From an uncultured bacterium (lineage in GTDB: Bacteria; Verrucomicrobiota; Lentisphaeria; Victivallales; UBA1829), in NCBI GenBank assembly GCA_902802585.1, contig CADCMR010000005.1:23022-87021 (forward strand): DNA of 64,000 bases, written 5' to 3'. Numbering within the stretch: position 1 is the first letter of the stretch; every line of letters begins with the position of its first letter. This document shows, piece after piece, positions 37,678 to 59,230 of the stretch. The position numbers were made by a program, and so were the translations under genes. A model generated the notes under the pieces. It had not been told where the DNA came from, did no database searches, and saw nothing but the letters and a program-made list of their open reading frames with translations.

Positions 37678-38298
37678 GTGACGATGAATTCCGCTTTCAA
37701 AGCCGTTGTCCTGCTCGCTGTGGCGGCGCTCCTCTGTGCCGCCACGTTCATCCTTGTGCCCCGGCTGCGGTCCTTTTCCACCGTCTCCGACGGCTATGGA
37801 TCCGTGGAGGGGGAAGAGGCGACGGAAGAGGAAACCGGGGTGGATGTTTCTTCCCCGGCGGGTGCTTCCGATACAGGCTCCTCCCGAACGAAACAGCCAA
37901 GCCGGAACCGTTCATCCGATCCGGTAAGCAACCGGGAGCAATCCAAGTTTGACGTCGGGGAGATGCGGAACGAGGTCGAAGAGATGGTCCGGAAATTCCG
38001 CGGCACGCCCGAGGAACGCCAGGAGGTGATCGAGGAGTGCGAAGGCGGAAAAGAACTGATCCGGCTGTTCGCCGACCTCAGCGAGTCGTCCATCGATAAG
38101 ATGTCGCCCGAGGAGCTGGAAAAGGAACGCGAGAATTTCGAGAAGGAATACCGCGCGCAGCTCGATTTCATCCAGACCGGACAGCTTCAGCGCATGCTCA
38201 AAACGCCCGAGGAAGAGGAAGTCATCGGCAGTACCATCGAAGCGGTGCAGGAGTTCCTGGAACGGATCGACGGCGCGTTGCATTCCGCCGGTTATTGA
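37678..38298 (+). CDS. secreted acidic hypothetical protein
   Basis: Signal-like AVVLLAVAALLCAATF and a Glu-rich helical C-terminal part. GTG start at 37678, alternative ATG at 37684. Confidence 0.55.
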   Translation: MTMNSAFKAVVLLAVAALLCAATFILVPRLRSFSTVSDGYGSVEGEEATEEETGVDVSSPAGASDTGSSRTKQPSRNRSSDPVSNREQSKFDVGEMRNEVEEMVRKFRGTPEERQEVIEECEGGKELIRLFADLSESSIDKMSPEELEKERENFEKEYRAQLDFIQTGQLQRMLKTPEEEEVIGSTIEAVQEFLERIDGALHSAGY

Positions 38299-38328
38299 GT
38301 GTATCCTGTCCTTTGACCAGGCTTTTTT

Positions 38329-38370
38329 GCCGCCTTTCGGGATGAATCGCCGAGGCGGCTTTCTTTTTGT
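38329..38370 (+). terminator. rho-independent terminator
   Basis: GCCGCCT-17 nt loop-AGGCGGC is followed by TTTCTTTTTGT. Confidence 0.6.
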
Positions 38371-38672
38371 TTCGCCCATGAACTCAAGACCGGGATACAC
38401 TGCTGAAACAATCAATCCTTTTGCGGAGAGAATATGTTTCTGTTTCAGAAAGGACATCATTCTCATGATATATGAGTAGATAAATTTCGGGATGGATACT
38501 TCGTTCTTTTCTGTTGCATAATATGTTTATTCTTATCAAGTTAAAAATGTGCTATATGAAACAAAGATAGAACTTGGATGTAAAAATGAAAAGTGTGTTT
38601 TTCCTCTGATTCATGCATGATCCGAATAAAAGAAAAAAACAGACAAAAAGGTCCCAAAATAAAAAAAACAGG

Positions 38673-38700
38673 TTGATTTTTTCTGAGAGCAGTATATATT
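38673..38700 (+). promoter_or_regulatory. sigma70-like promoter (TTGATT-N16-TATATT) for the EPS locus
   Basis: The hexamers were read directly at the end of a ~390-bp AT-rich spacer, 60 nt upstream of the ATG at 38761. Confidence 0.5.
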
Positions 38701-38760
38701 ATATATTAAACACGGCATGTGCCGAAATCAGAAAAACGGTGAACCGGAAGAGAAAAACAC

Positions 38761-39099
38761 ATGGAACTTTCCAACTTTGAAAACGATGGAATTGAAGTCA
38801 TCCAAATCAAAGGACATCTTTCCGCCGAGAATGCGGAAACATTGCGGTCAAAATTTCTTGAGCTGTTTGCTACTCAGCGGAAATTTGTGTTTGATCTGTC
38901 TGAGATGGAGAATCTGGACAGCACCGGGCTCGGAACGCTGGTGTTCTGCCTGAAAAGCTGTACGGAATTCAACGGGACGATGAAGCTGGCGAACTTGACG
39001 CAGCGGGCACGGATGATTTTCGAAATCACGAAAGCCTACCGGATTTTCGATATTTACGACGAACTGGACGAGGCGATCAAGGCCGCCCGCGAGGCGTAA
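38761..39099 (+). CDS. STAS domain protein (anti-sigma-factor antagonist, SpoIIAA/RsbV-like)
   Basis: 112 aa. The LDSTGLGTLV motif carries the conserved phosphorylatable Ser position. Overall STAS pattern. Confidence 0.85.
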   Translation: MELSNFENDGIEVIQIKGHLSAENAETLRSKFLELFATQRKFVFDLSEMENLDSTGLGTLVFCLKSCTEFNGTMKLANLTQRARMIFEITKAYRIFDIYDELDEAIKAAREA

Positions 39100-39153
39100 A
39101 TGCACGGTAAGTCGTATGCCGGAGACGGCGGATAAACAGGCGGAGGCGCGGAA

Positions 39154-39960
39154 ATGGGGCTGGGTTTGAACGGCTCGAAATCAACGGAACGGGAAAAGAT
39201 TAAAGCTCCCGGGAAGGGGTTTCGCATGTTCGGTCCGGATATTTCCCCTGGCATGGACGAACTGCCGTTCCTGTCCGGATCGTTTTCCTCTCATGCCAAA
39301 ACGTATGCGAAGCTCCGTACATGTGCTATCAAGCGCATCCGCGTTCTTTCCGTGGACGGGAGCCCCGTTATCAAGCGATGGCTGGATATTTTCGGCAGTT
39401 TATTCGCGATTGTTCTGTTGCTGCCAGTATTCCTGGTTGTCGCGGTCTGGCTGAAACTTGATTCGCCGGGACCGCTCATATATCGGCAGATTCGCATCGG
39501 GCTGCACGGCCGCCCGTTTTATTTTTACAAATTCCGCTCCATGTACATCGACTCCGATGCTCGGCGGGCGGCGCTGCTGCAGGCGAACGAATCCAAGGAC
39601 GGCGTGATTTTCAAGATGAAAAACGATCCCCGCATCACGAGGTGCGGTCGGTTCATCCGGAAATACAGCATTGATGAATTCCCCCAGTTTTTCAATGTCC
39701 TGCTTGGCGACATGAGCCTGGTCGGGCCGCGTCCGCCTCTTCCGTCCGAGGTGGCTCAGTATTCGCTCGACGACTGGAAGCGGCTTGCCATTCTGCCGGG
39801 CATCACCTGCATCTGGCAGATTTCCGGGCGCAGCGACATCCCGTTCCGGGAACAGGTCGTGCTCGACAAGGAATACATACGGGGGCAGGGCTTCTGGAAG
39901 GACGTGCTGATCCTGTTCAAGACCATTCCGGCGGTCCTTGCCGGGAAAGGGGCGTACTGA
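39154..39960 (+). CDS. phosphoglycosyl transferase (bacterial sugar transferase, WbaP/PglC-type, initiating enzyme)
   Basis: Motifs GPLIYRQIRIG, YKFRSM, SIDEFPQFFNVLLGDMSLVGPRPP and PGITCIWQISGRSD. GGAGG ribosome-binding site 7 nt before the ATG at 39154; later in-frame ATGs at 39226 and 39253 are possible. Confidence 0.88.
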   Translation: MGLGLNGSKSTEREKIKAPGKGFRMFGPDISPGMDELPFLSGSFSSHAKTYAKLRTCAIKRIRVLSVDGSPVIKRWLDIFGSLFAIVLLLPVFLVVAVWLKLDSPGPLIYRQIRIGLHGRPFYFYKFRSMYIDSDARRAALLQANESKDGVIFKMKNDPRITRCGRFIRKYSIDEFPQFFNVLLGDMSLVGPRPPLPSEVAQYSLDDWKRLAILPGITCIWQISGRSDIPFREQVVLDKEYIRGQGFWKDVLILFKTIPAVLAGKGAY

Positions 39961-39961
39961 A

Positions 39962-41380
39962 ATGATGAAAGCGCTGCTTTTCTGCCCTGTCCATGGCAAC
40001 GCCGAACTGAAACGCTATTTCCCCGGCTATCCGGTCTACCTGCTTCCGTTCGCGAACAAACCGGCGATTGAGTTTGAGCTTGATTTCTGTTTCCTGAGCG
40101 GGATACGGGATGTCCTGATCGTGTCAGACGAGGAATCCGAGATCCTGCGCACGCAGTACCGGAGCGGCGAAACGCTCGGGTTGAACATCCGTTGTGAAGG
40201 AACCGGCCCTTCCATTCCACTGAAGCGGATCATCCAGCGGAACAAATCGTTTTTCTGCGGATGCGACCTTCTGGTTTTCTCCGGGCTTTTCCTGCCGGAA
40301 TACGACAAGCGGAATCCGCATGAGCTGAATATCGGCGCGGATGAAGTGAAGGGGTGTTCCTACGGCGGGGCGGCCTGGTACCTGATCGGACGCGACCGGC
40401 TGGACGAGCTCCCGGACGACTGGAGCGGATTCCGCGACGAAGCGCCGGTGAACGGTTTCGCGGTTCCCGGCATCCGCGATTACTACAGGCACAACATGCG
40501 TCTTGCCGGAAGCGACATAGAGAAATACAACCTGCCCGGTTTCAGTGAGGGGAAGAACAGTTTCGTGGGGCGCGACGTGCGGATTCCCGGAACGGCGCGC
40601 GTGAGGCCGCCTGTGATCCTCGGGAACGGGATCCAGTTCGGACGCGGCGTCCATGCCGGACCGAACATCATCGTGGGCGACAACTGCGTGATCGACAACG
40701 GAACGGCGATCAGGAATTCGATCGTCCTGGGCAACACGTATGTCGGCAGGAACCTTGAAATCGAAGGGAAAGTGTGCAGCGGGAACCGCATGGTTGATCC
40801 TGAATCCGGGATCGTGATCAATGTCGTGAACGAATCCGTCCTGTCCGAAATCGAACCGGATGAATACGGCAGGTGTCCGCTGTATCAGCGCGCACTGGCA
40901 TGTCTTCTTCTTTTTCTCCAGACGCTGCCGTATGTTCTGCTCCGGCCGTTCCTGGAACACCACTCCACGCTTGTGGAGTGCATGCTTGAAAACGGGGCGA
41001 GGCGCACGATGTCCTTGAACGCGTATGTGCTGCCCCGGAGGAGTGCCGCGGGAAGGCTGTTCCGCAGGCTGACGCTGAACAAGTATCATCTGCTGCCGTA
41101 TGCGGCGGCGGGGAAGGTGCGCCTTGTCGGGAACTGTCTGCTGGAAGCGAACGAACGGAACGAGGCGTTTGTCGGGAACCTGCCCGGCTATGCTCCCGGC
41201 ATTTTTTCCTACAGCGAATTTCTCGGCCATGAAAATGAGCCGTATCAACTTGAACTCGACGAGCAGTACTATGCGTATGCCATGAACTGCTGGTTCAACA
41301 TCAAAATACTGACGGGGATTCTGCGGCGCAATTTCAGAGCGGAAGGGCGTCCGTTGCAGCAGAGAGGAGTTATGGAATGA
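39962..41380 (+). CDS. three-part fusion: degenerate nucleotidyltransferase-like domain, left-handed beta-helix (hexapeptide) domain, catalytically degenerate sugar-transferase (PGT-like) domain
   Basis: The N-terminus aligns with the NTP_transferase fold (LLPFANKPAIEF...IRDVLIV) but GGxGTRL is replaced by PVHGNAEL. Hexapeptide repeats span VILGNGIQFGRGVHAGPNIIVGDNCVIDNGTAIRNSIVLGNTYVG. The C-terminus aligns with the PGT core (KVRLVGNCLL, PGYAPGIFSY, WFNIKILTGIL) but lacks KFRxM and the Asp-Glu dyad (LNKYHLLP versus SIDEFPQ). Confidence 0.75.
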   Translation: MMKALLFCPVHGNAELKRYFPGYPVYLLPFANKPAIEFELDFCFLSGIRDVLIVSDEESEILRTQYRSGETLGLNIRCEGTGPSIPLKRIIQRNKSFFCGCDLLVFSGLFLPEYDKRNPHELNIGADEVKGCSYGGAAWYLIGRDRLDELPDDWSGFRDEAPVNGFAVPGIRDYYRHNMRLAGSDIEKYNLPGFSEGKNSFVGRDVRIPGTARVRPPVILGNGIQFGRGVHAGPNIIVGDNCVIDNGTAIRNSIVLGNTYVGRNLEIEGKVCSGNRMVDPESGIVINVVNESVLSEIEPDEYGRCPLYQRALACLLLFLQTLPYVLLRPFLEHHSTLVECMLENGARRTMSLNAYVLPRRSAAGRLFRRLTLNKYHLLPYAAAGKVRLVGNCLLEANERNEAFVGNLPGYAPGIFSYSEFLGHENEPYQLELDEQYYAYAMNCWFNIKILTGILRRNFRAEGRPLQQRGVME

Positions 41381-43473
41381 TTTTATCTGATAACGGCACT
41401 ATTGACGTTCCGGTTCCGGCGTCCGCATCCGGGACGGAAGGCATGGGGCAGGATGCGAACTTGCCTGCCATTTTCCGGTTTTTACGTCTGTTCAAACGCG
41501 ACCTCTGGTGCTGGCTCAACGCCTTGCAGAAAATGTGGTGGCTTTTCCTCATTTTCCCGTTCCTTTTCGCCATCGGCCTGTTCATGGTCCGGACGATGAC
41601 GACGACGAACGTGTATGTGGCGAACTGCGGAATGATCCGCCAGTCGATTTCTGACACACACCACGAGGTTCTTCCGCCCGGGTATGTGAACATCCAGAAG
41701 TCCGTCATCATGACGCTGTTCAAGAGCCGTGCCGTGCTGGAGGAGACCGTGAAACGTCTCAGCCTTCCCTACACAGCGGAACAGCTTTTCCGCAACATCG
41801 ACGTCAAATCGGAAAAGAATTCGGACTATTACTATGTGTCCGCATCGTCCAAGGACCCGACGATCGCCGCCACGCTTGCCAATACGCTTGCCGACGTGTT
41901 CATCGAGGAATACAAGAAACTGATCCGGAAGAACCTTGAGGATCTGAACGACAGTTATGTCCGGACCCAGAATGACTTGGAAAAACAGATTGAGGAACAG
42001 GGCGAAAAATTGAAAGACCTGTGCGCCGAGAACAATCTGACGATGATCGAGAGCGATATTGCGTTCAACAATCAGCGGCTGCTCCAGGTCGAAGACCGGT
42101 TGACGCAAGCCGCATCCACCCTGGATTCCGCGAAACAGGCGTTGTATGAACTGCAGGGTGAGCTTGCCAACACGCAGGAAAACGTTGTGACGCACAGGGA
42201 AAAAAGCACTGTCGTGGAGGACAACCTCAGGCAGGAAGAATCCGTATTGGCAAGGTATGAAGAAGTTTATGCGAGGAACAATCCCATCCTGATTCAACAG
42301 CGTGAGGTCGTTAGAAAGTTAAGGGCTGAAGTTGAGAAAAGTCAGCAGGAGGATGAGACGTCGGAGAATGAACTGGACAGGAAAATCATCATTTCCCGAA
42401 ATCCCGCCTATACTCAAATTCTGGTCTCCATTGCCGCAAGGAAAGCCGAGATTTCGTCTTTGACGAACGATATCAAGCTCAACAATGAAATCGCGGTTCA
42501 GCTGCGTGCCAGACGCGAGCTGCTGGCATCGATCCAGCCGGTCATCCGGCAGATGGAGATGGACCTCGCGCAGTACAAGGAACAGCTCAATAAAAACAAG
42601 CTTCAGATTGCCACAATCCGCAACTTCCTGGACCGTTCCTTTTCCGACATATCCATTCAGGAACTGGCGAAGCCCCCGAACAGACCGCTGGGACGCAAAC
42701 GCAGCGTCTGGGGGATCATCGGTTTCATTCTGGGAACGTTCATCTCGCTCTCGATCATTTTCGGGTGCGAACTCTTCAACCTGACGGTTCGTTCCAGCAT
42801 CGATATCGAACAGGCGCTCCAGATCAAGGCGTTGGGGCTGATTCCGGTCCTGGACCAGGCTCACCGTGCCAATTACTACAGCGCCCTTCAGACGATTCTA
42901 AGCAACGGGGAAGAGTATTTCTCCAAGTTGTCGCCGGACCATCCCCTTCTGGTCGTGTTCGCTCCGAACAAGCGCGCTGACCTGGACGGGAAGATCCGGG
43001 AGGAGTTCTGTGAGACTTTGAAGATCCGCCTCGGGTGCAAGTACGTCGTGATTTCGCCGCTGGTCGGGGAAGAGGAAGCTCCGTCGAATCAGACTCCGGT
43101 ATTGATCAACGATTACCTGTATCAGTTCACCGATGAAGCGCCGAAGCCGGACAAGGATCACTGCGTCTACTTCAAACTGGATGACCTTTCATTCATTTCG
43201 CCTCTGACCGGCGACCAGATCCAGCGTATCAAGACGGCATACAAGTCCGTCTCCCTGATCGTGTGGGACCTTTTCGATTTTGAGCTGCACCGCCAGCTGT
43301 TTGCTGAAATCGCCCACAATGCCGACCTGACGATTATTCCGATGAAATATGCGCAGACTTCAAAACTGAGCATCTACAGGATCCTTCAGTTCCTGAAGGC
43401 GTTCCATGTCAACAATGTCGTCGGATTCCTCTACAACATCAACAACAAGCACTACAGCAAGGCGAGTTTATGA
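41377..43473 (+). CDS. polysaccharide co-polymerase (Wzz/GumC/Wzc-like, PCP-2a architecture) with degenerate C-terminal kinase-like domain
   Basis: ATGA overlap with the upstream gene. Two TM helices flank a long coiled-coil periplasmic region. The C-terminal ~230 aa have a MinD/BY-kinase-like layout (LLVVFAP..., SLIVWDLFD, ADLTIIPM..VVGFLYN) but no GxxGxGK[ST] Walker A and no Tyr cluster. Confidence 0.75.
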   Translation: MILSDNGTIDVPVPASASGTEGMGQDANLPAIFRFLRLFKRDLWCWLNALQKMWWLFLIFPFLFAIGLFMVRTMTTTNVYVANCGMIRQSISDTHHEVLPPGYVNIQKSVIMTLFKSRAVLEETVKRLSLPYTAEQLFRNIDVKSEKNSDYYYVSASSKDPTIAATLANTLADVFIEEYKKLIRKNLEDLNDSYVRTQNDLEKQIEEQGEKLKDLCAENNLTMIESDIAFNNQRLLQVEDRLTQAASTLDSAKQALYELQGELANTQENVVTHREKSTVVEDNLRQEESVLARYEEVYARNNPILIQQREVVRKLRAEVEKSQQEDETSENELDRKIIISRNPAYTQILVSIAARKAEISSLTNDIKLNNEIAVQLRARRELLASIQPVIRQMEMDLAQYKEQLNKNKLQIATIRNFLDRSFSDISIQELAKPPNRPLGRKRSVWGIIGFILGTFISLSIIFGCELFNLTVRSSIDIEQALQIKALGLIPVLDQAHRANYYSALQTILSNGEEYFSKLSPDHPLLVVFAPNKRADLDGKIREEFCETLKIRLGCKYVVISPLVGEEEAPSNQTPVLINDYLYQFTDEAPKPDKDHCVYFKLDDLSFISPLTGDQIQRIKTAYKSVSLIVWDLFDFELHRQLFAEIAHNADLTIIPMKYAQTSKLSIYRILQFLKAFHVNNVVGFLYNINNKHYSKASL

Positions 43474-44528
43474 TTTCCAAATTCCATCATCGGTTGGCGC
43501 TTTCCCTTCTGTCCGTTCTTTCTCTTGTCGCAACCTCCTGCAACAATACGCCGTTTGGAGGCATTGCCATTCCCGGAATGACGTCCGTTGTCCCGAGGCA
43601 GGACAAAGATTCCTATTCGATTCAGGAAGAACTGAAAGCTCTTCATGTGGTGAATCCTGTTCCATACGAAATCCGTCCCGGCGACCAGTTCCAGATGTCG
43701 GTGTACAATCAGCCTTCTCTTACAACCGGTATCCTGGTCGCTCCTGACGGAACGGTCAGTCTGCCGCTGGTCGGAATCGTCAAGCTTTCCGGGATGAATT
43801 TGGAGGATGCCACAGAACTGGTCGAAGAGAAACTTTCCAAGTATCTGAAATCTCCGATTGTCACATTGGCTCCCCAGGCTGTGAGCGGTTTCTATTTCAC
43901 GATCGCAGGACGTGTCAATAAGCCCGGCAACTATTCCGTTTCGGTCGGACAGACCCATCTTCTTGATGCGATTTCCCTTGCCTCCGGGTTTGCGACGGGG
44001 CAGTTCCACGGCGATACCGTGGAGCTTGCCGACCTTGACAATGCCTATGTCAAACGGAACGGCAAACAGTTGCCCGTGGATTTCAAGAAGGTGGTTTACG
44101 AAGGGGACGACCTGAACAACATTCCCCTCATGAACGGGGATTACATCTATGTGCCGTCCACCATGAGCGGATATATTATTTTCCTGGGTGAAGTCGGAAG
44201 CAATACCTATGTCGGGTTTACCGAAGGGATGACGCTTCTGCAGGGATTGTCCTATGTGAATGGATTGAAGACGGAAACGTACAGTTCGAATGTCCGCGTC
44301 ATCCGCGGCGGCATGAACAATACGGTCGTCTACACGGTCAACGTTGACAAGATTCTGAATGGAAAAATGAAGGATTTCGCCTTGAATGCGAATGATATCA
44401 TTTATGTCCCGCAGGATGGATTCTCCAAATGGAACACCATGATCCGGAAAATGCTGCCGACCCTTCAGCTTGTCAACCTTCTCGCCGGACCGTTCGGATC
44501 GACCATTCTCGGGTATTTCAGCCTCTGA
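43470..44528 (+). CDS. wza: polysaccharide export outer-membrane lipoprotein (Wza-like; Poly_export plus SLBB domains)
   Basis: ATGA overlap. Lipobox LVATSCNN. Motifs IRPGDQFQMSVY, PDGTVSLPLVG and GRVNKPGNY. Confidence 0.88.
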   Translation: MISKFHHRLALSLLSVLSLVATSCNNTPFGGIAIPGMTSVVPRQDKDSYSIQEELKALHVVNPVPYEIRPGDQFQMSVYNQPSLTTGILVAPDGTVSLPLVGIVKLSGMNLEDATELVEEKLSKYLKSPIVTLAPQAVSGFYFTIAGRVNKPGNYSVSVGQTHLLDAISLASGFATGQFHGDTVELADLDNAYVKRNGKQLPVDFKKVVYEGDDLNNIPLMNGDYIYVPSTMSGYIIFLGEVGSNTYVGFTEGMTLLQGLSYVNGLKTETYSSNVRVIRGGMNNTVVYTVNVDKILNGKMKDFALNANDIIYVPQDGFSKWNTMIRKMLPTLQLVNLLAGPFGSTILGYFSL

Positions 44529-44558
44529 CGCATTCTCTCCCCCGGAACTGGTGCGGAT

Positions 44559-45953
44559 ATGTCTATCCTGAAGATCATTGAATTTTCGTTTCTGTTTTTA
44601 TATTTGCTTCCGTTCATGACGGCATTGTGCTGTCTTTTTCCGGGTTTCCGGCATATCTGTTTCGCGGGAATGGTTTATTTCACCAGCAACGAGATCTCAA
44701 TCAATTTCGTGCCGATGCCGGACTGGAGAGGCACGGCACGTGGATATGCGTTTACAGGCGTGTCCCTTTTTGCCGTTCCGGTTCTGCTGAGCACGTTTTT
44801 TATGCCGCAGTATAAAGTGAAGCTGTTTCCACCGGGAACTTTTTTCTATTTCCTATACTATCTGGTGGTCCTGCTTTCCGGCATGAACGCGATCCACAGG
44901 CATCAATGGGGGTTTGAAGTTTACAAGATGTTCTGGATGTATGTCACATTTCTCACCACATTCAATTATCTGAACAACTGCAAGAATCTCAACTATTTCA
45001 TTTGTGTGGTGTGCTTTGTTCTGATCATCCTGTTTATAATCGGATTCAAACAGAAATACCTGGAGTCACGATTCCAGATCAGTTCGACCTTCCCGCACCA
45101 GAATTCGCTTGCGCTCTATCTGGAGGCTTTCGGGCTTCTTTCTCTGGGCGTCCTGATGAACGAACAGATGAACAAGTTGATGTTCGTGATCGTCCTCGGT
45201 GCGTTCGTCAGCTCCCTACTTCTTATCCTTTTTACATTTTCACGAGGCGGTTTCGTGATCTTTTTCGGCGGCATCGCCATTGTCTGCGCCCTGTCCAACC
45301 TGTGCAACGGTTTCTCGCTCAGGCGGCTGCTTCTGATGCTGATCGGACTGACATTCGTGCTGTGCGCCGTGGGATATGCGCTGCCGCGTATCATTCTGCG
45401 TTTCACGAAAGCCCCTGAATCCTCCAAGAACACCCGAATCGCGTTTGCTCTCGCTGCCAAGAGAATGGCAAACGATTATACGTTTGGCGTCGGTGCAAAC
45501 AATTTCAGCGAGTATTCCGGCGGGGACGGGAAATATGAATACGCAAGAGAGCTTTATCCCGTCGTATATCCAAAGTACGGAGGAATCGTCGAAACGATCT
45601 ATCTGCTTGTCGCCGCGGAATGCGGCTGGACCGGACTGGTCATTCTCCTCCTGTGGTTCATGTATTATTATATCTCGTCCATAATAAGTGTCGTTGTCCT
45701 CCGGAAAAAACCATGTTCCGGCATAGCGATCGGGGTGTTTGCCGGACTGACCTGCTGGTATTGGCATTCCTCGCTGGAATGGAGCCTGAAGCAATTCAAC
45801 AATTTTGCACAGCAAATGATCATATATGCCCTCATCGGAGTAATCGCCGTCAACCGGAAGAACATCAAGGCGGCCTATGCACGGATGTTGGCAAGACAGG
45901 CGGCGAGCCTTAATCAGGCAAAAGCGCTTCCCGCTTCGAATCCGCAACATTGA
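44559..45953 (+). CDS. O-antigen ligase/polymerase family membrane protein (Wzy-like)
   Basis: Polytopic and AT-richer. It has a Wzy_C-like FSRGGF...loop region and 464 aa. Confidence 0.75.
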   Translation: MSILKIIEFSFLFLYLLPFMTALCCLFPGFRHICFAGMVYFTSNEISINFVPMPDWRGTARGYAFTGVSLFAVPVLLSTFFMPQYKVKLFPPGTFFYFLYYLVVLLSGMNAIHRHQWGFEVYKMFWMYVTFLTTFNYLNNCKNLNYFICVVCFVLIILFIIGFKQKYLESRFQISSTFPHQNSLALYLEAFGLLSLGVLMNEQMNKLMFVIVLGAFVSSLLLILFTFSRGGFVIFFGGIAIVCALSNLCNGFSLRRLLLMLIGLTFVLCAVGYALPRIILRFTKAPESSKNTRIAFALAAKRMANDYTFGVGANNFSEYSGGDGKYEYARELYPVVYPKYGGIVETIYLLVAAECGWTGLVILLLWFMYYYISSIISVVVLRKKPCSGIAIGVFAGLTCWYWHSSLEWSLKQFNNFAQQMIIYALIGVIAVNRKNIKAAYARMLARQAASLNQAKALPASNPQH

Positions 45954-46048
45954 ACCTGGGATTTCCCGCAACACGCCTGATGTCTGCGCGGACAGTTTTT
46001 GATGCGGTGGTTCTGTTGGGCGGGATCCGTGCCGGACGCCGCTGGCTG

Positions 46049-48316
46049 TCAATGCGGAACCTTCATGCCGCGGATTTTCAGGGACGATCCTGCCTCCGGC
46101 TCCAGCACGATGCGGATCGGCCAAATGGCTTCGGCGTGGTAAATGGTGCCGGAGGATCCCGGATTCGGGGCGGGGATCAGCTTGGCAGGACTGTTCTTCA
46201 CCGGGATCAGGTAATCCTTCATGTCTTCGGAATCAACCTGGACGGATCCGATCTCCATTTCCTCCCAGGGGGCTTCCACAGACGATCTCCGTTCCGGAAT
46301 AATAGTCCGCATTGGCTCCGGTGAAGGCCGTGGTGCCGGCGGCGCTTCGCATGTGCCGGACAGGTCTTCCTCCCCGACCGTGCAGGAAGCCGTGCCGCTG
46401 AGTGCCGTGACCCTGGCATGGACCGTGCCCCGGCACAGGCGCAGGACAATCCGCCCCTTTCCTGATGCCCGGACGGTGATGCCCGCACCGCCGTTATCCC
46501 GGAAAACCACCCTGCTGAAGAGAAGCCATCGCCGTTCTTTTGCCTCGAACGCCTCCGTCCAGGACGCCGCGTCATGGATGCCGGTTCCGATGCGGGAGGT
46601 GTTCGGCCACTTCAGGTAGAGGTTCGGCGGCGCATTCCGGTCGGTCACCCACACAAACGCGGGCTTCGACATGTCCTGATAGGCGTCGCAGAGCTGGGCG
46701 TGGTAGGTGTTCCGGTCGGGCGAGGTGTATTCTTTCCGTTTCGTTTTGAACTCGTCGAAATCCGCATGCCCGCCGGTTTCCTTCTGGGCGCAGCAGAAAA
46801 TGCAATAGCGGAGCGCGAGCCAGTCGGAGAAGAACTCGCACGGCATTCCGAGCGGTTTGCCCAGCTTGATGAAGTGCTCCCCGCCGTCCGTGCTGTAGGA
46901 ATACTGCACGGCGTACTGGAGGAACGGGACGTCCGCTCGGACCACGACCTGCGTTTTTTCGCCGGATTCGAGCGGAACGGACGTAATTTCCTCCGTGGTG
47001 TATTTTCCGTCTTTGTTGAGCTGGCGCATCACGGCGAGCCGAGTTTTGCCGTTCTCTCGGACGGCGGCGACGAATGTGCAGTGCTGGGAGAAGAGTCCGA
47101 TCCCCGCCATGTCTCCGTCCTTCAGTCCGGAGTAGTCCAGCACGGTCTGCGCGGAGTCGCCCGGTCCGAAGATCTGCTGGACGAGCACGTTCTGCGTTTC
47201 ACGGATCGCGGAGGACGTGCGCTGCGGCTTCAGGCGGAGCCAGCCGGGACGTTCCGTGAGCGACCAGCCGTCCTCCGCTGGATGGTGGTTCCACTGCCAC
47301 TGCAAACCGAGTTCGTTTGAGCCGAAACGGTCGCTTCGCCAATGGTCGGGATTGATGGCGGGGCTTTTCGTATCGACGGCGGGCTTTTGGTATGTGAGGA
47401 CGGGTTTCACCTCGGGCCAGCCGTCCTTCCATTCCACGGGCAGCAGGAACGGGATGCGCCCGAGCTTGCCGTGGTCCTGGAAGATGATCGACCACCAGTC
47501 GCCGTTTTTGAGCTGCACGAGGCCGCCCTGGTGCAGTCCGGACCCCTCGTAGGTCAGCTGGGAATCGCACACGACCTTGTGTTCGTACGGTCCATAGACG
47601 CTGTCCGAGCGAAAACAGTGCTGCTTGCCGCCGCCGGGGTTGAAGATGTAGTATTTGCCGTCGATCCTGTAGACGTGCGAGCCCTCGCAGATCGTCCCGC
47701 GGATGACCGTCTTCTCCGGCGTGACGACCTTCGTCAGGTCGGCGTCGAGTTCGGTTACCTTCAGCTCGTTCTGCCCGTGGAACACGTAGACGCGGCCGTT
47801 GTCATCGAAGAACAGCCCCGGGTCGTACATCTTCGCCCGGATCGCGTTCATTTTCCACGGTCCCGCCACGTCTTTCGCGCGCGACACCAGGAACACGCCG
47901 TCCACGCCGGTCTTGTTTTCCGGTCGGTTGTCCCACACATAGCACACGGAGTAGAACATGCCGTCGTGGTAGCGCAATGAGGGCGCCCAGCTACCCGCCC
48001 CGTATGCGTTCCCGTGCTTGCCGTCGAGGTCGTAGCGCGGGTCTTCAAGGATTTTGTAATCGGGAATGGAGAACCCCGCCGGCTCTCAGTTCACCAGGTC
48101 GCGCGAATGCATGACCGGATTGCCGGGCACGAGGTGGAACGACGAGGACTGATAGTAGAAATCGTCGCCCACACGGATCACCTCGGAATCGGGGTAGTCG
48201 GCGAACAGGACCGGGTTGGAGTACGTGCCGTCGCCGTTGTCCGCCCCGAACGAGATCGAGGCGGAAACGGCGGACCATATCGCCAGTGCGATGACCGCGG
48301 CGGTGAACTTCTTTAT
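46049..48316 (-). pseudogene. GH43 beta-xylosidase/alpha-L-arabinofuranosidase with C-terminal lectin-like domains, apparently disrupted (ATA at start position; in-frame TGA at 48086-48088)
   Basis: The same frame reads (I)KKFTAAVIALAIWSAVSASISFG...NPVLFADYPDSEVIRVGDDFYYQSSSFHLVPGNPVMHSRDLVN-TGA-EPAGF...SWAPSLRYHDGMFY and continues into the 642-aa track ORF. The TGA sits where the conserved DLVNW Trp is expected. Confidence 0.75.
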
Positions 48317-48346
48317 GGCGGAGTTTGTTTCCTTTCCCCTGCTGGC

Positions 48347-50248
48347 TTACTTGTCCAGCGGGAGATACGCGGAGTAGTGCTCGTGGTAGACGTTGAAGAG
48401 CGGCATCAGCGTGAATTCGCCGTTCTTGCCCTGCGCGACGAACTCGCCGAAGTTCTTGCCTGGCTTGAACGCCTTGATCGCGGTCTCGGCGTCGGCTGCC
48501 GCCACGGTCGGGATCGGCTCATGCGTTTCGGGGCCCCACTGGTCCCTGTAGCGACGGAGCGCGGGGTCGTCGCCGGCCTTCGGCGGGATCACGGCGGCGA
48601 GGAGCAGCGGACCGTAGAAGAAGGCGACGTGCTTGCCGTCGGGGAGTGATTCGCTGTAGAGCGGGAAGTCGAATTCGATCTGGACCTTGTCGCCGTCCTT
48701 CCAGTTGCGGTAGATGGCGATGTAGCCGCGTTCGTCGGCGTCAGCCTTGACGGTGGAGCCGTTGACCTTCACGGTCATCTGCTTCGCCCAGACGGGCTTG
48801 CGGAGGTCGAGCGCGAACTTTTTCGCACTCTTGAGACCGAGCTTGATCTCGGCGGTCTTCGAGAGCGGGAAGGCGGACTTGAGCTCAAGATCGAGACCGA
48901 GCTTTTCGTCCTTCAGTTCGGCTGCCCAGTACTGGTTCACCGCCACGGTGCCAGCGCCGTCGGTGGCGAAGCTGATCTCGGTGTAGCGTTCCGGGTTCTC
49001 CATGCCGGACCCGACGCAGCACCACCAGGAGTTGAACTCGGTGGAGAAGACTTTGTAGTGCGGCGAACCGAGGGAGAGGAAGTAGCCGTATTCGCCCGGC
49101 TCCTTGCCGATGTTTGCGGCGATGTGGTTCAGCGTCACGCGTTCGGCGAAGTCCATCGGCTTCGTATTCTGGTTCCACTCGAAGACATGCGAGGCAATCT
49201 TGACCATGTTGAAGGAGTTGCAGGTCTCGGCGGTGTTCGGCTTCAGCGTGCGCGCCACGTCGTTCATGTCGTAGAAATGCTCGCTTTCGCTATGACCGCC
49301 ATTCGCGTAGGAGCGCTTCGTGGAGACTTCGTTGAAGAAGTATTCTGCGCCGGTGCGCGCCTTTTCGTCGCCCTCGACCTCATACAGGCGGGCGAGACCG
49401 GCGATCTTCGGAATCTGCGTGTTCGCGTGAATGCCGTTGAAGATATCGCGCTGTTCCTCCATCGCGCCGAGGATGCGGTTGTCGAAGAAGAAACGGCGTC
49501 CGGCTTCGGAATACTTCTTGTCGCCGGTGTCCGTGGTGAGGTCGACCATGACCTCAAGCATGCCGCCGTGCTCGGCGCGGAGCATGTTCTGCACCTGGTC
49601 GGGGCTGAGGTTGCTCAGTGCGGCGATCACGCGGTCCGCGAGCTTCTTCTCCACGTCGAGCGCCTTCTTGTTGCCGGTCAGGCGGTACGCGTCGCGGAGA
49701 CCGGCGAAGACTTTGTGGATGGAGTAGAACGGCACCCAGACGCCGTTCAGGTTGAACGGCTGCGGGCGCACCGTGCCGCGTTCGAGGTCGTTCAGCCAGC
49801 GTTCGTCCTCGGCGTGGACGTAGCCGGTGCCGAGCTTGTCCTGGCATTTCGCCAGTTCGTCGACGATATAGTCGGAGCGTTCCTTCGCCTTCTTGTTGCC
49901 GCCGTGCGCATACGCCATGCCGAGCGCGGAGAGGTAGTGACCAAGCGAATGGCCCGCGATGTCGCGCGCTTCCCAGCCGCCGTACGGGCGCGCCTTCGCC
50001 TCAAGTCCAGCCACCGTCAGGAATTTCGACAGCAGGGCGTCGGGGTTCAGCGTTTCCGTCAGGAAGACTTCGTTCACTTTCTTGCGGTCCGCCATCGGGC
50101 CGTCCTCAAGGTCCGTCGCATTGGACGGGTAGAACGTGAGTTTTCCGGGGGCGGGGGCGGGCTGGTCGTCGGCGGAGGCGCAGCTCACGGCTGCGGTTGC
50201 GGCGGCCGCGCAGATCGCGGCGGCGGCAATGACTGCTGCATGTTTCAT
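48347..50248 (-). CDS. GH127 beta-L-arabinofuranosidase-like (DUF1680) lipoprotein
   Basis: Motifs GHSLGHYLSALGMAY, NGGHSE and CCVGSGMENPERY. AGGAGA ribosome-binding site before the ATG at 50248 (MKHAAV...AVSC); alternative ATG at 50269. Confidence 0.88.
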   Translation of the reverse strand: MKHAAVIAAAAICAAAATAAVSCASADDQPAPAPGKLTFYPSNATDLEDGPMADRKKVNEVFLTETLNPDALLSKFLTVAGLEAKARPYGGWEARDIAGHSLGHYLSALGMAYAHGGNKKAKERSDYIVDELAKCQDKLGTGYVHAEDERWLNDLERGTVRPQPFNLNGVWVPFYSIHKVFAGLRDAYRLTGNKKALDVEKKLADRVIAALSNLSPDQVQNMLRAEHGGMLEVMVDLTTDTGDKKYSEAGRRFFFDNRILGAMEEQRDIFNGIHANTQIPKIAGLARLYEVEGDEKARTGAEYFFNEVSTKRSYANGGHSESEHFYDMNDVARTLKPNTAETCNSFNMVKIASHVFEWNQNTKPMDFAERVTLNHIAANIGKEPGEYGYFLSLGSPHYKVFSTEFNSWWCCVGSGMENPERYTEISFATDGAGTVAVNQYWAAELKDEKLGLDLELKSAFPLSKTAEIKLGLKSAKKFALDLRKPVWAKQMTVKVNGSTVKADADERGYIAIYRNWKDGDKVQIEFDFPLYSESLPDGKHVAFFYGPLLLAAVIPPKAGDDPALRRYRDQWGPETHEPIPTVAAADAETAIKAFKPGKNFGEFVAQGKNGEFTLMPLFNVYHEHYSAYLPLDK

Positions 50249-50519
50249 GTCTTGTTTCTCCTGATTCATGTGTGGTTGGGTTGTATGGAAACGAGTTCAG
50301 ATTCTGTTCGGAAACGGACGGCGAACGCGTGCGCGTTATGAGGCGCGCGGCATCCTCCGTCGGAAGATTTATATTCCGTCAATGCTTAATATACTATAGA
50401 AACGAAATTATGCTATTCCTTTTTCAAAGAAAAGCATACATTTTTTGATCATTTTGCCCGGAAGATGTTAATATAATCGTTATGTTAACGGTACATAACG
50501 GAAAAACTGTCTATCGAGT

Positions 50520-55214: not shown

Positions 55215-57707
55215 TCACTCGGCGACGATGCCGTCGACCTTCTTGATCTTGAGGCGGTTCACGGCATCCTCGCGCATCTTGTATTTGAGGATTTTGCCGG
55301 CGGCGTTCATGGGGAACTCCTTCACGAAGTCGACGTAACGCGGGACCTTGTACTTCGCCATGTGGGAGCGCACGAAGTCCTTCATTTCCTCCTCGGTCAT
55401 GGTCTCGCCTTCCTTCAGGATCACGCACGCCACGATCTCCTCGCCGTACTGCTCGTCCGGGATGCCGATCACCTGCACGTCGGAGACTTTCGGGTGCGTG
55501 TAGATGAATTCCTCGATCTCCTTCGGGTAGATGTTCTCGCCGCCGCGGATGATCATGTCCTTCAGGCGGCCGGTGATGCGGTAGTTGCCCTCGGGTGTGC
55601 GGAGCGCGAGGTCGCCGGTGTGGAGCCAGCCGTCGGCGTCGATGGCTGCGGCGGTCTCAAGCGGCATCTTGTAGTAGCCCTTCATGATGTTGTAGCCGCG
55701 AGCGAGGAATTCGCCGGGGACGTTGTCCGGGAGGTCTTTTCCGGTCGCGGGGTCCACGATGCGGCATTCGATTTCCGGCATGGCGCAGCCGACGGTCTCC
55801 ACGCGGACTTCGAGCGGGTCGTTGGTGCGGCTCATGGTGCAGCCGGGGGACGCCTCGGTCTGACCGTACACGATTACGATCTCGGTCATGTTCATCTTGT
55901 TCACGACGTCCTGCATGACCGCCACGGGGCAGGGCGAACCCGCCATGATCCCGGTGCGCATGTAGGAGAAATCGGTCTTCGGGAAATCCGCGTGCTCCAG
56001 CATGGCGATGAACATGGTGGGCACGCCGTGGAACGCGGTGATCTTCTCCTGGTTGATGCAGGCGAGGGCGGATTTCGGGGAGAAATAAGGCAGGGGGCAG
56101 AGGGTGGTGCCGTGCGTCATGGACGCGGTCATCGCCAGGACCATGCCGAAGCAGTGGAACATGGGGACCTGGACCATCATGCGGTCGGCGGTGGAGAGGT
56201 CCATGCTGTCGCCGATGCACTTGCCGTTGTTCACGACGTTGTAGTGGGTGAGCATGACGCCCTTCGGGAAACCGGTGGTGCCGGAGGTGTACTGCATGTT
56301 GCAGACGTCGTGGATGTCCACGGCGTCTGCGCGGCGGCGAAGCTCCTCCATCGGCACCTTGTGGGCATATTCCAGGGCTTCCTCCCAGGTCAGGCTGCCG
56401 GGCTGGCGGAATCCGACCGAGATGATGTTGCGGAGGAAGGGCAGGCGCTTTGCGTGGAGCGGTTCGCCCGCCTTTGTTTGCGCGAGCTCGGGGCAGAGCT
56501 CGTTCATGATGCCCGCATAGTCGGAATCGCGGTAGCCCTCGATCATCACGAGCGTGTGGGTGTCGGACTGGCGGAGCAGGTATTCCGCCTCCTGGATCTT
56601 GTACGCGGTGTTTACCGTGACGAGCGCGGCGCCGATCTTCGTGGTCGCCCAGAACGTGATGTACCACTGCGGCACGTTCGTCGCCCAGATGGCGACCTTT
56701 GCGCCGGGCTTCACGCCGAGCGCGATCAGCGCGCGGGCGAAGGTGTCCACGTCGTCGCGGAACTCGGAGTAGGTGCGCGTGTAGTCGAGCGTGGTGTACT
56801 TGAACGCGTACTGGTCGGGGAATTCGCGGACCATGGCGTCGAGCACCTGGGAGAACGTCTTTTCGATCAGGACGTCCTTCTTCCAGATGAACTTGCCGGT
56901 ATGGCGGTTGTTTTCGTAGAGGGTCGCCTTGGCGCGCGCCAGCTCGAACCGGCTCATGTAGCTTACGAACTGCGCGAAGATCACGTCGGGCGAGCTGATC
57001 TCCGCCTCCCACTTCGGGTCCCATTCGATGGAGATAAACCCGTCGTAGTTCACGGAGCGGAGGGCGTTCATCACGCGGTCGAGCGGGAGCGAGCCTTCGC
57101 CGACGATCGCGTGGACCTCGGCGCTCTCGGAGTCCTTCAGATGGACGTGCTTGATGTATGCGCCCAGGTTCTTGACCGTGGTCTCGGGCGTCTCGCCGCA
57201 GACGCGGTAGGGATAATGCAGGTCCCACAGCGCGGCGAGGTTGTCCGTCATGAAGCTCGCGAGCAGGTCGCCGAGCTTCAGCGTGTCGGCGTAGCAGCCG
57301 ACCGTCTCCACGAGCAGGACCACGCGGGACTGTTCGGCGAGCGGGAGGGCGCGGCCGATGAATTCACGGGCGGCGGCATCGTCGTCGTCGGTGTTTCCGC
57401 CTGCTTTCAGGCGGATGTAGGGCACATGCAGGCGGCGCGCGGTCTCCAGGCAGCGTTTAAGCTCGTCGAACGCGGCTTCCGGCTTCGCGGCGATGTCGTT
57501 CACGAGGTCGAGGCAGGAGATGCACAGGCCGTAGTTGCGGATTTTATGCTGGACGCCCGCGAGGCGTTCCGGCTGGAAATCGTTCCGGAGCTTCGGCGTG
57601 TCGATGCTGTGGATCTCGATCCCGTTGAACTTGTATTCCCGGGCGATCCGGACAAAATCGTCGAAGCTGTAGGATTCCCAACGATTGGTCGAGAACGACA
57701 GTTTCAT
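55215..57707 (-). CDS. fusion protein: xylose-isomerase-like TIM barrel (sugar phosphate isomerase/epimerase, AP_endonuc_2) plus AMP-forming acyl-CoA synthetase
   Basis: The ATG at 57707 overlaps the upstream stop (ATGA). The N-terminal ~260 aa read MKLSFSTNRW...GIEIH...YIRLKAGG...HLKD...ISIEWD. The C-terminal part has YTSGTTGFPKGVMLTH, YGQTEASP, GWLHTGDLA, GRLKDMIIRGGENIYP and AGKILK. Confidence 0.85.
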   Translation of the reverse strand: MKLSFSTNRWESYSFDDFVRIAREYKFNGIEIHSIDTPKLRNDFQPERLAGVQHKIRNYGLCISCLDLVNDIAAKPEAAFDELKRCLETARRLHVPYIRLKAGGNTDDDDAAAREFIGRALPLAEQSRVVLLVETVGCYADTLKLGDLLASFMTDNLAALWDLHYPYRVCGETPETTVKNLGAYIKHVHLKDSESAEVHAIVGEGSLPLDRVMNALRSVNYDGFISIEWDPKWEAEISSPDVIFAQFVSYMSRFELARAKATLYENNRHTGKFIWKKDVLIEKTFSQVLDAMVREFPDQYAFKYTTLDYTRTYSEFRDDVDTFARALIALGVKPGAKVAIWATNVPQWYITFWATTKIGAALVTVNTAYKIQEAEYLLRQSDTHTLVMIEGYRDSDYAGIMNELCPELAQTKAGEPLHAKRLPFLRNIISVGFRQPGSLTWEEALEYAHKVPMEELRRRADAVDIHDVCNMQYTSGTTGFPKGVMLTHYNVVNNGKCIGDSMDLSTADRMMVQVPMFHCFGMVLAMTASMTHGTTLCPLPYFSPKSALACINQEKITAFHGVPTMFIAMLEHADFPKTDFSYMRTGIMAGSPCPVAVMQDVVNKMNMTEIVIVYGQTEASPGCTMSRTNDPLEVRVETVGCAMPEIECRIVDPATGKDLPDNVPGEFLARGYNIMKGYYKMPLETAAAIDADGWLHTGDLALRTPEGNYRITGRLKDMIIRGGENIYPKEIEEFIYTHPKVSDVQVIGIPDEQYGEEIVACVILKEGETMTEEEMKDFVRSHMAKYKVPRYVDFVKEFPMNAAGKILKYKMREDAVNRLKIKKVDGIVAE

Positions 57708-59122
57708 TTGACACCTGCCTCGAAACAGATCTTGTTCACGGCGTCTATGTACGCACGGATGCCCGCGCCGACCACGTCGGTGGAGACGCCCTTGCCCGCG
57801 TACACCTTGTTCTCGTAGCGGAGCTTCACGATGGTCGTGCCCATAGCGGACGCGCCGCCGGTCACGGACTGGATCTGGAAGTCGTCGAGCTCGAAGTGGT
57901 GCTCGAGAATTTCCTCGATGGCGAGGAACGCGGCGTCGATCGGACCGTCGCCCGTGCCGTAGCCCTTCACCTCGGCGCCGTCGCGTTCGAGGATGACATG
58001 GGCGTAGGACGTGATTTCGTTGCCGGAGGTGATGACGAAGGATTTGAGGCGGTAGGTGGGCGGCACCTGGAGGGAGACCGTGGCGATGATGGCTTCCAGT
58101 TCCTTCGGACCGACCGCCTCCGTCTTCTTCTGCACAATGCGCTGGACGGAATCGTAGACGGAATCCAGCGCGAAATCGTCGAGGTCGTAGCCCATTTGGC
58201 GGACGGCTTCGGCGACGGCGTCGCGGGAATCGGACTTGGAGAGGCTGAAATTGAGCTCGCCGGCGGCAGGCTGATCGAAGCATTCGTCCTGTTCGGCGCG
58301 ACCGCTCAGGATTTGGCGGATCTGCTCGTAGGACTTTTCCAGTACGGTCATGTTGATGCCGCAGGACACGCCGAGGGCGTCGCCTTTCGCGCGGAAGACG
58401 TGCGCGATGCTGCGGAGGCTGGGTTCGTTCACGCCCGCGCAGGTGGTTTTGACCTGGGCGAATCCGGTGTCCACGCTGGCGAAGATGCACGCCGCCGCCA
58501 TGTGCAGGGCGTTGGAATACGCGAAGGAAAGCTTCACGTTTTTGAGCTCGGGCACGGCTTCGCTCAGCGAGGCGACGAACTTGTTGAATTCGTCGGGAAG
58601 CATGACGCCCGCGGTGTCGCAGACGGTGATGACGCCCGCACCGGATTCGATGCCGGCGCGGATGACCTGCGCCAGGAAGTCGGCTTCGGCGCGTGTGGCG
58701 TCCTGCAGCGAGAGCTCGACGTCCTCGCAGAGTTCGCGGCAGGCTTTCACCTGGGCGCGGATCATGTCGAGCACGACCGGCGGCTTCTTGTGGAACTGGT
58801 ACTCCATCTGCACCGTGGAAACGGGCGCGACCACGTTCAGGCGCGGGTGTTTCGCGGTGCGAAGCGCCTCCCAGGTATCCGGAAGAAGTTCCGGATCAAG
58901 GCCGACCGGGCAGGCAAGAACGCAGCGCGTCATAAGGGGAGCAAGCGTGTGAAGGAAAACAATGTCATTTTTCCCGTTCACGACCGGAGCCGTTTCAATG
59001 GCATCCACGTTCAGCTTGTCAAGCTGACGCGCCACCTCGATCTTTTCCTTAAAACTCAAGGAACTGCCATTGCACGCGGCTTGTTCGCGCAACGACACAT
59101 CGACGATTTCTATCTTTCTCAT
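57704..59122 (-). CDS. 2-isopropylmalate/citramalate synthase-like protein (HMGL-like TIM barrel plus LeuA_dimer domain) with degenerate active-site motifs
   Basis: Colinear with LeuA. The N-terminal DVSLREQAA stands in for DTTLRDGEQ, QDATR for EDAGR, and DTAG is retained. SFAYSNALHMAAA stands in for SVHTHDDLGLAVGN. The C-terminal GDGPIDAAFLAI...VSTDVVGAGIRAYIDAVN is conserved. Confidence 0.8.
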   Translation of the reverse strand: MRKIEIVDVSLREQAACNGSSLSFKEKIEVARQLDKLNVDAIETAPVVNGKNDIVFLHTLAPLMTRCVLACPVGLDPELLPDTWEALRTAKHPRLNVVAPVSTVQMEYQFHKKPPVVLDMIRAQVKACRELCEDVELSLQDATRAEADFLAQVIRAGIESGAGVITVCDTAGVMLPDEFNKFVASLSEAVPELKNVKLSFAYSNALHMAAACIFASVDTGFAQVKTTCAGVNEPSLRSIAHVFRAKGDALGVSCGINMTVLEKSYEQIRQILSGRAEQDECFDQPAAGELNFSLSKSDSRDAVAEAVRQMGYDLDDFALDSVYDSVQRIVQKKTEAVGPKELEAIIATVSLQVPPTYRLKSFVITSGNEITSYAHVILERDGAEVKGYGTGDGPIDAAFLAIEEILEHHFELDDFQIQSVTGGASAMGTTIVKLRYENKVYAGKGVSTDVVGAGIRAYIDAVNKICFEAGVK

Positions 59123-59201
59123 GGGCGTCTCCTTACGACGTTCGCCGCCCCTGTCCCGGCACCGCGCCGGACCATCGCGGCGGAAATGATTATAAACAAT
59201 T

Positions 59202-59230
59202 AATATACCACATCCTTATTGAAAATTCAA
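59202..59230 (-). promoter_or_regulatory. sigma70-like promoter (TTGAAT-N17-TATATT on minus strand) for the IPMS-like operon
   Basis: The hexamers were read on the reverse complement, about 75 nt upstream of the ATG at 59122. Confidence 0.5.

Follow-up and report, generated by a model that had tools for sequence, protein, structure and literature searches.

The question raised by this locus is whether a glycoside hydrolase gene that has an in-frame stop codon and no canonical start codon is decoded in some unusual manner, is intact in the cells and misrepresented in the assembly, or has been inactivated. The gene, a member of family GH43, lies on the minus strand of the 64,000-nucleotide stretch of DNA that we analyzed (contig CADCMR010000005.1, positions 23,022 to 87,021; the whole stretch is hereafter the window, and positions are given in its coordinates). 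An earlier note, made from the letters of the sequence, had described two lesions in the gene, a TGA in place of a tryptophan codon and an ATA in place of the start codon, and had offered very recent inactivation, a strain or population polymorphism, and a sequencing or consensus error as possible explanations. Our analysis favors the first of these: the locus is very probably a real GH43 gene of an uncultured cattle-rumen Lentisphaeria/Victivallales bacterium that has recently been inactivated, that is, a pseudogene or loss-of-function allele. The enzyme family is a known one, and the gene is an ordinary young pseudogene, without an unusual genetic code.

An in-frame TGA at an invariant tryptophan

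The minus-strand frame is open from the TAA of the upstream GH127 gene (48347-48349) to 46049, where the GH43 frame terminates in a TGA (46049-46051), and its sole interruption is the TGA at 48086-48088; these positions, that of the ATA preceding the signal peptide (48314-48316) and the frame itself are all as the earlier note had given them. After the GH127 TAA the frame translates as ASRGKETNSA-I-KKFTAAVIALAIWSAVSASISFGADNGDGTYSNPVLFADYPD...SRDLVN-*-EPAGF...; when Trp is substituted for the internal stop, the resulting bridged protein has 755 residues, counted from the ATA (the features of the gene are collected in Table 1). The internal TGA is codon 77, and the residue that it displaces is invariant: all 116 homologues that cover the site (35-100% identity) have Trp, and the codon is TGG in 10 of 10 orthologue DNAs (metagenome-assembled genomes and metagenome contigs of rumen Lentisphaeria/Victivallales), which bears out the proposed TGG to TGA change at the Trp of the conserved DLVNW motif. 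Relative to its intact orthologues, the gene carries a disabling lesion that is present in the DNA, as a pseudogene does; translation that initiates at the 5′ end halts after 76 residues. No other in-frame stop in the window is flanked on both sides by coding signature, junctions between different genes excepted. In-frame abutting pairs of open reading frames (ORFs) at 5401, 17310 and 51549 were considered as further split genes and rejected, because the members of each pair are different genes as judged by Pfam.

The intact orthologues from rumen Lentisphaeria/Victivallales (RUG555, L003; RGIG3616, L004; RUG12414, L005; the protein P0002; and others) share 77-80% amino acid identity with the window's protein over the full length and 91-94% across the N-terminal 314 residues, and their domain order is that of the window; unlike the window, they retain the TGG codon for Trp77 as well as a canonical start (vide infra). 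The rest of the window's gene is undamaged, as the earlier note had supposed: there is no frameshift, D43, D165 and E211 are present, and the ratio of nonsynonymous to synonymous substitution rates (dN/dS) is about 0.28. The bridged protein matches the Glyco_hydro_43 profile over positions 1-288 of 288 (E = 1.3e-46, 159.7 bits; cut-off 32.2) and GH43_C2 at residues 328-525 (E = 7.5e-32, 111.1 bits; cut-off 22.7); it also aligns with PDB 6mly over residues 21-524, DLVNW included (E = 2e-84), and the alignment with PDB 3zxj has DLVHW at the window's DLVNW. We take the catalytic residues of 3zxj (HiAXHd3) to be D43, D167 and E216, the spacing of which fits this alignment. In the window, the codon for D43 is located upstream of the TGA and those for D165 and E211 are located downstream. 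The full-length propeller and the predicted catalytic Asp/Asp/Glu of the GH43 family are, thus, both present, and an uninterrupted translatable coding sequence is not.

The bifunctional GH43-CE protein of PDB 6mly and AXHd3 of Humicola insolens (3zxj) likewise combine PF04616 with PF17851 and have the catalytic residues and the DLVNW/DLVHW motif; the window differs from both in that its frame is broken by a TGA at the invariant Trp and has no canonical start, and from 6mly in that its C-terminal ~230 residues are outside the aligned region. More distant homologues, at about 50% identity, contain a CBM6 domain (PF03422) besides the GH43 and GH43_C2 domains. The ancestral product would have been a glycosidase secreted by the Sec route, with a GH43 domain of the xylosidase/arabinofuranosidase type followed by GH43_C2 and an uncharacterized C-terminal domain of ~230 residues; its gene would have been transcribed after that for the GH127 β-L-arabinofuranosidase. 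The predicted signal peptide is intact in the window, and alignments show that it is common to the L083 group of relatives.

The product that gene callers report for the locus is P0001, a protein of 636 residues that starts at an internal ATG; an ORF of 642 residues starts at a TTG slightly upstream of it. Products from these codons have no signal peptide, no first propeller blade and no D43. Because the 5′ product ends at 76 residues and the downstream products lack both the signal peptide and D43, standard decoding would yield no active secreted enzyme, and we infer that active enzyme would not be expressed from the locus. The ORF of 636-642 residues does persist and is called as P0001; however, that a truncated product from the TTG or the ATG (47977 or 47959) is functional is barely credible, given the missing signal peptide, blade and predicted base, the last of which is invariant, and given that all orthologues encode the full N-terminus.

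Probable loss of the start codon

The second lesion described in the earlier note was the loss of a usable canonical start, and such a start is indeed missing: no ATG, GTG or TTG is found in frame ahead of the signal peptide, in the 30-nucleotide stretch from the GH127 TAA to the ATA. From the TAA to the TGA, the noncanonical codons in frame that resemble initiators are limited to ATA, ATC, CTG, ATA, ATC and CTG; the first canonical start, GTG at 48179-48181, is past both the signal peptide and the predicted catalytic base D43.

The earlier note had placed the lesion at the ATA itself, as an ATG changed to ATA; the orthologues argue against this position. Their starts (ATG, GTG or TTG) are found 5-10 nucleotides past a Shine-Dalgarno (SD) motif and 4-5 codons upstream of the ATA position, and the codon aligned with the ATA is GTG, ATG, a Lys codon (P0002) or, in the intact L005, an ATA that encodes an internal Ile. 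In the closest relatives (L083, L084, L085 and L092; signal peptide ...TAAVIALAIW) the region reads GAAGGAAAGGAATACT-GTG-AAG-AAC-TCC-GCC-GTG-AAG-ATA-TTC, that is, (M)KNSAVKIF. L005 has AGGAGG followed after 10 nucleotides by TTG-AAC-TCC-GCC-ATA-AGG-AAG, for (M)NSAIRKF; L003 has AGGAGG followed after 9 nucleotides by TTG-ATC-TCC-GCC-GTG, for (M)ISAV...; L004 has ATG-CCC-ATG-AAG-AAG-AGC-TCC-GCC-ATG, for MPMKKSSAM...; and the N-terminus of P0002 (protein only) is MNSAKKKF. The window has GGAAAGGAA-ACA-AAC-TCC-GCC-ATA-AAG-AAG, from which a canonical start is absent. The counterpart of its ACA is TTG in L005 and L003 and Met in P0002, and the GTG of L083 and L084 is located one codon further upstream; the spacer in the window is 7 nucleotides shorter than in the closest relatives, and no start-like codon is found within 4-10 nucleotides following the window's AAGGA core.

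Because the SD-proximal starts of the orthologues align at or around 48326-48328, where the window has ACA and a shorter spacer, the real start was probably lost through changes at this site. The first lesion would then consist of the loss of the SD-proximal start (ACA for TTG or ATG, with 7 nucleotides removed from the spacer), which would leave the near-cognate ATA 13 nucleotides past the SD-like core; the second lesion, independent of the first, is the TGA that replaced TGG at codon 77, where Trp is invariant, and that ends translation at 76 residues.

Stop-codon usage and the possibility of recoding

Approximately 31 ORFs in the window have a coding signature; about 20 of these end in TGA, about 11 in TAA and none in TAG. 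Because TGA ends about 20 such ORFs, the organism uses TGA as a stop; on this ground, and because a single in-frame TGA is flanked by coding signal, we rejected reassignment of the codon (UGA = Trp, code 4; UGA = Gly, code 25). Recoding as selenocysteine was also rejected: the fold of the sequence past the TGA is not better than that of shuffled sequence (z = 0.58), so that nothing like a selenocysteine insertion sequence is found, there is no Rfam match, and the position is that of an invariant Trp. The Rfam scan of the window identified one tRNA-Ser and no other family; a suppressor tRNA is absent from the window.

UGA is the one stop codon that tRNA-Trp can misread, and ATA is a listed start codon in translation table 11. 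The gene could, then, be expressed at a low level by initiation at the ATA and read-through of the UGA by tRNA-Trp, which would restore the ancestral residue; in favor of this possibility, the stop is a UGA at a Trp codon, the remainder of the GH43 gene shows no decay, and AUA initiation in E. coli occurs at 0.02-3% of AUG (bioRxiv 10.1101/063800). However, we consider such expression very unlikely. In the window, TGA serves as an ordinary stop and is used more often than the others, and neither the downstream fold nor a suppressor tRNA in the window offers support; the ATA is 13 nucleotides from the SD-like core, whereas in several other genes of the window SD-like motifs are located about 7-10 nucleotides before the first in-frame ATG; and TGG and a canonical start are kept in all of the orthologues. 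In addition, the losses at the two steps would multiply: with initiation at no more than 3% and read-through assumed not to exceed about 1%, expression would be roughly 1e-4 of the normal level or lower. Still less probable is that AUA initiation and tRNA-Trp read-through maintain the allele at a very low and perhaps regulated level of expression; if true, the lack of further decay would mean that selection still acts on a 'doubly leaky' glycosidase gene.

Agreement between assemblies and the search for an intact allele

ENA scaffold STEW19-1_SAMEA5384029_METAG-scaffold_68 (L001; IDBA-UD, single sample) matches the window exactly, and so does a contig that Logan assembled from run ERR3201418 (L164). 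The third contig is k87_30046907 of ERZ1029116 (L002; MEGAHIT-style, k87); it departs from the window at five single-nucleotide polymorphisms (SNPs) within the 3′ part of GH127 and contains the same TGA and ATA. The cattle rumen compendium was built from single-sample IDBA-UD assemblies and MEGAHIT co-assemblies with a k-list up to 87 (PMC6785717); the assembler naming of the contigs fits these methods, and ERZ1029116 may belong to the project. Because three assemblies by different assemblers carry identical lesions, an assembler artifact is excluded. The same agreement removes most of the force from the suggestion in the earlier note of a sequencing or consensus error. For this sequence there are only metagenome assemblies from Illumina data, possibly with shared reads, so errors in a gene that is intact in the cells might be repeated among them; however, we regard this explanation as extremely unlikely, since the three assemblers agree at both sites (including the contig with the five nearby SNPs), the start region differs by a 7-nucleotide length change and substitutions instead of one miscalled base, and the 64 kb contain no further split gene.

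The lesions might instead be restricted to one strain of a mixed rumen population, the assembly having taken the majority variant while intact alleles coexist with it. This is possible, although on balance we think it somewhat unlikely. Strain SNPs adjoin the gene in the second contig (L002), and a sister species has a parallel polymorphism (nonsense in L085, intact in L084); however, an intact allele did not appear in any of our searches. In the protein search the sole 100% match was the truncated P0001 and the next match was 77%; in a set of about 15 billion proteins, P0001 stands alone in its cluster at 90% identity; look-ups with P0001, the GH127 protein (633 residues) and a neighbor of 464 residues returned only contigs with the same lesions; and over the N-terminal 314 residues nothing exceeded 93% in the scan of GTDB representatives or 94%, the closest match, in the scan of JGI metagenomes. 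Coexistence with intact alleles is, moreover, compatible with recent inactivation and not truly a rival to it.

Age of the inactivation

The GH43 gene of the window aligns with its orthologues over the full length with zero frameshifts; its length changes are in-frame and located in linkers that also vary among the intact genes, the window's linkers being shorter by deletions. Compared pairwise with its orthologues, the window has a dN/dS of 0.27-0.30; comparisons of intact orthologues with one another give 0.17-0.33 (0.27-0.33 for most pairs and 0.17 for the closest pair); the three-taxon values are about 0.29 for the window branch and about 0.27 for L003, and the ratio of GH43 to GH127 rates is equal in the window and L003 lineages. 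Relaxed selection on the window lineage is, thus, not detected as an excess in either the pairwise or the three-taxon dN/dS, a test that is insensitive to a recent event; with the nearest relatives at about 82% DNA identity, dN/dS cannot date the event closely. Because dN/dS is at the level of the intact orthologues and no catalytic residue has been lost, we infer that the inactivation was recent and that the gene was under purifying selection during most of its separate history. Recent inactivation, which the earlier note had proposed for a gene otherwise intact, is in this respect the best reading of the locus. As in ordinary bacterial pseudogenes, a nonsense codon produced by a single transition and a lost start are found in a gene that is intact in relatives; the window differs in that its gene has no frameshift, its dN/dS is not elevated and its catalytic residues are still in place, so it belongs at the very young end of the spectrum.

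Some of our observations weigh against inactivation. The unchanged dN/dS and the lack of any decay beyond the two lesions would also be expected if the allele is very young or polymorphic or if some function is retained; the reads behind the three assemblies are probably the same in part or in full, so the assemblies are silent on allele frequency; and the survey for suppressor tRNAs and for TGA at Trp codons is confined to the 64-kb window.

The earlier note had also drawn attention to a property that the two lesions were thought to share, namely that both were G-to-A transitions. We rejected a G-to-A mutational signature: changes of this class account for about 25% of the lineage-specific changes in the window (35/141), L083 (16/60) and L004 (19/73) alike and are the top class in every lineage, and the start lesion cannot be put down to one G-to-A change. 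The GH43 gene has 69 single-transition routes to a stop codon; because G-to-A is the commonest change in every lineage and so many routes are available, TGG to TGA is the expected kind of knock-out and no special process is needed.

As a separate observation, the synonymous divergence (dS) of GH43 is about 2-2.5x that of the adjacent GH127 in the same genome pairs (e.g., 0.49 vs 0.20 for the window and L003), and this is also seen in intact pairs; the comparison used window positions 46049-50269 and L003, L004 and L006.

The GH127-GH43 pair in relatives

GH127 is located directly upstream of GH43 in 7 of the 9 relatives compared, and 13 other loci of the 15 related loci are uninterrupted. L085 (JAEEGJ010114120.1), from a sister species to the window lineage, has a derived nonsense codon at 2213-2215 (CAG to TAG, GH43 codon 437; L083 has CAG), and it shares 99.7% nucleotide identity with the intact L084. 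In the lineage of L083-L085 and L092, only the last ~55 codons of GH127 are left upstream of GH43 (the region checked in L084 is 1-1970), and upstream of the truncated GH127 are short ORFs only, without similarity to GH127; this suggests that GH127 was truncated in these relatives by a rearrangement or an insertion.

Gene order and neighboring genes

The gene order on the minus strand of the window is PFOR - DUF1848 - GH127 - GH43, and this block converges on a polysaccharide-export/Wzy cluster of lower GC content. The GC content of positions 38001-46000 is 0.49-0.56, compared with about 0.60-0.65 elsewhere in the window. The genes that face GH43 convergently encode a Wzy_C/O-antigen-ligase-like protein (44559-45953) and a Poly_export/SLBB protein (43470-44528); in L004 the same Wzy and export genes are located downstream of GH43, with 83-87% amino acid identity to those in the window. 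Elsewhere, positions 55218-58895 of the minus strand form one long frame in which residues 415-626 match a xylose-isomerase-like TIM barrel (AP_endonuc_2) and residues 688-1201 an AMP-binding enzyme; the first ~400 codons of this frame overlap a further ORF that has a coding signature (57704-59215), which makes the gene boundaries ambiguous.

Table 1. Features of the disrupted GH43 gene and its upstream neighbor in window coordinates.
Feature	Position	Strand	Basis or remark
Disrupted GH43 gene body	46049..48316	minus	Translation; Pfam; full-length orthologue alignment
C-terminal region, ~230 residues	46052..46741	minus	No Pfam match; conserved in Lentisphaeria orthologues
GH43_C2 beta-sandwich, PF17851	46742..47335	minus	Pfam
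GH43 five-bladed propeller domain, PF04616, spans the TGA	47414..48223	minus	Pfam
E211 (CEGSH), predicted general acid	47684..47686	minus	Alignment; E in 118/118 homologues
D165 (YDPG), predicted pKa modulator	47822..47824	minus	Alignment; D in 118/118 homologues
Internal TTG (47975-47977) and ATG (47957-47959)	47957..47977	minus	Starts of the 642-residue ORF and the 636-residue P0001
Premature stop TGA, codon 77, after SRDLVN	48086..48088	minus	Same TGA in L002 and L164
D43 (YPD), predicted general base	48188..48190	minus	3zxj alignment; D in 116/116 homologues
Signal peptide, Sec-type (KK, hydrophobic core, SFG/AD), putative	48242..48316	minus	By inspection
ATA before KKF of the signal peptide, best remaining near-cognate start	48314..48316	minus	Sequence, alignments
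ACA at the orthologous start position	48326..48328	minus	DNA alignments, ORF translations, P0002 N-terminus
SD-like AAGGA core, 13 nucleotides before the ATA	48330..48334	minus	Sequence
Upstream GH127 beta-L-arabinofuranosidase gene, intact	48347..50269	minus	Pfam, synteny

Implications

Together, the lesions in the window, the nonsense allele of L085 and the truncated GH127 in the lineage of L085 suggest that several rumen Lentisphaeria populations can dispense with the GH127-GH43 pair and are losing it repeatedly and independently. The significance of the locus is mostly one of annotation: P0001 in the public catalogues is a fragment of a disrupted gene and should not be counted as an active carbohydrate-active enzyme. 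Beyond this, the locus provides a small data point on the strain-level turnover of carbohydrate-active genes.

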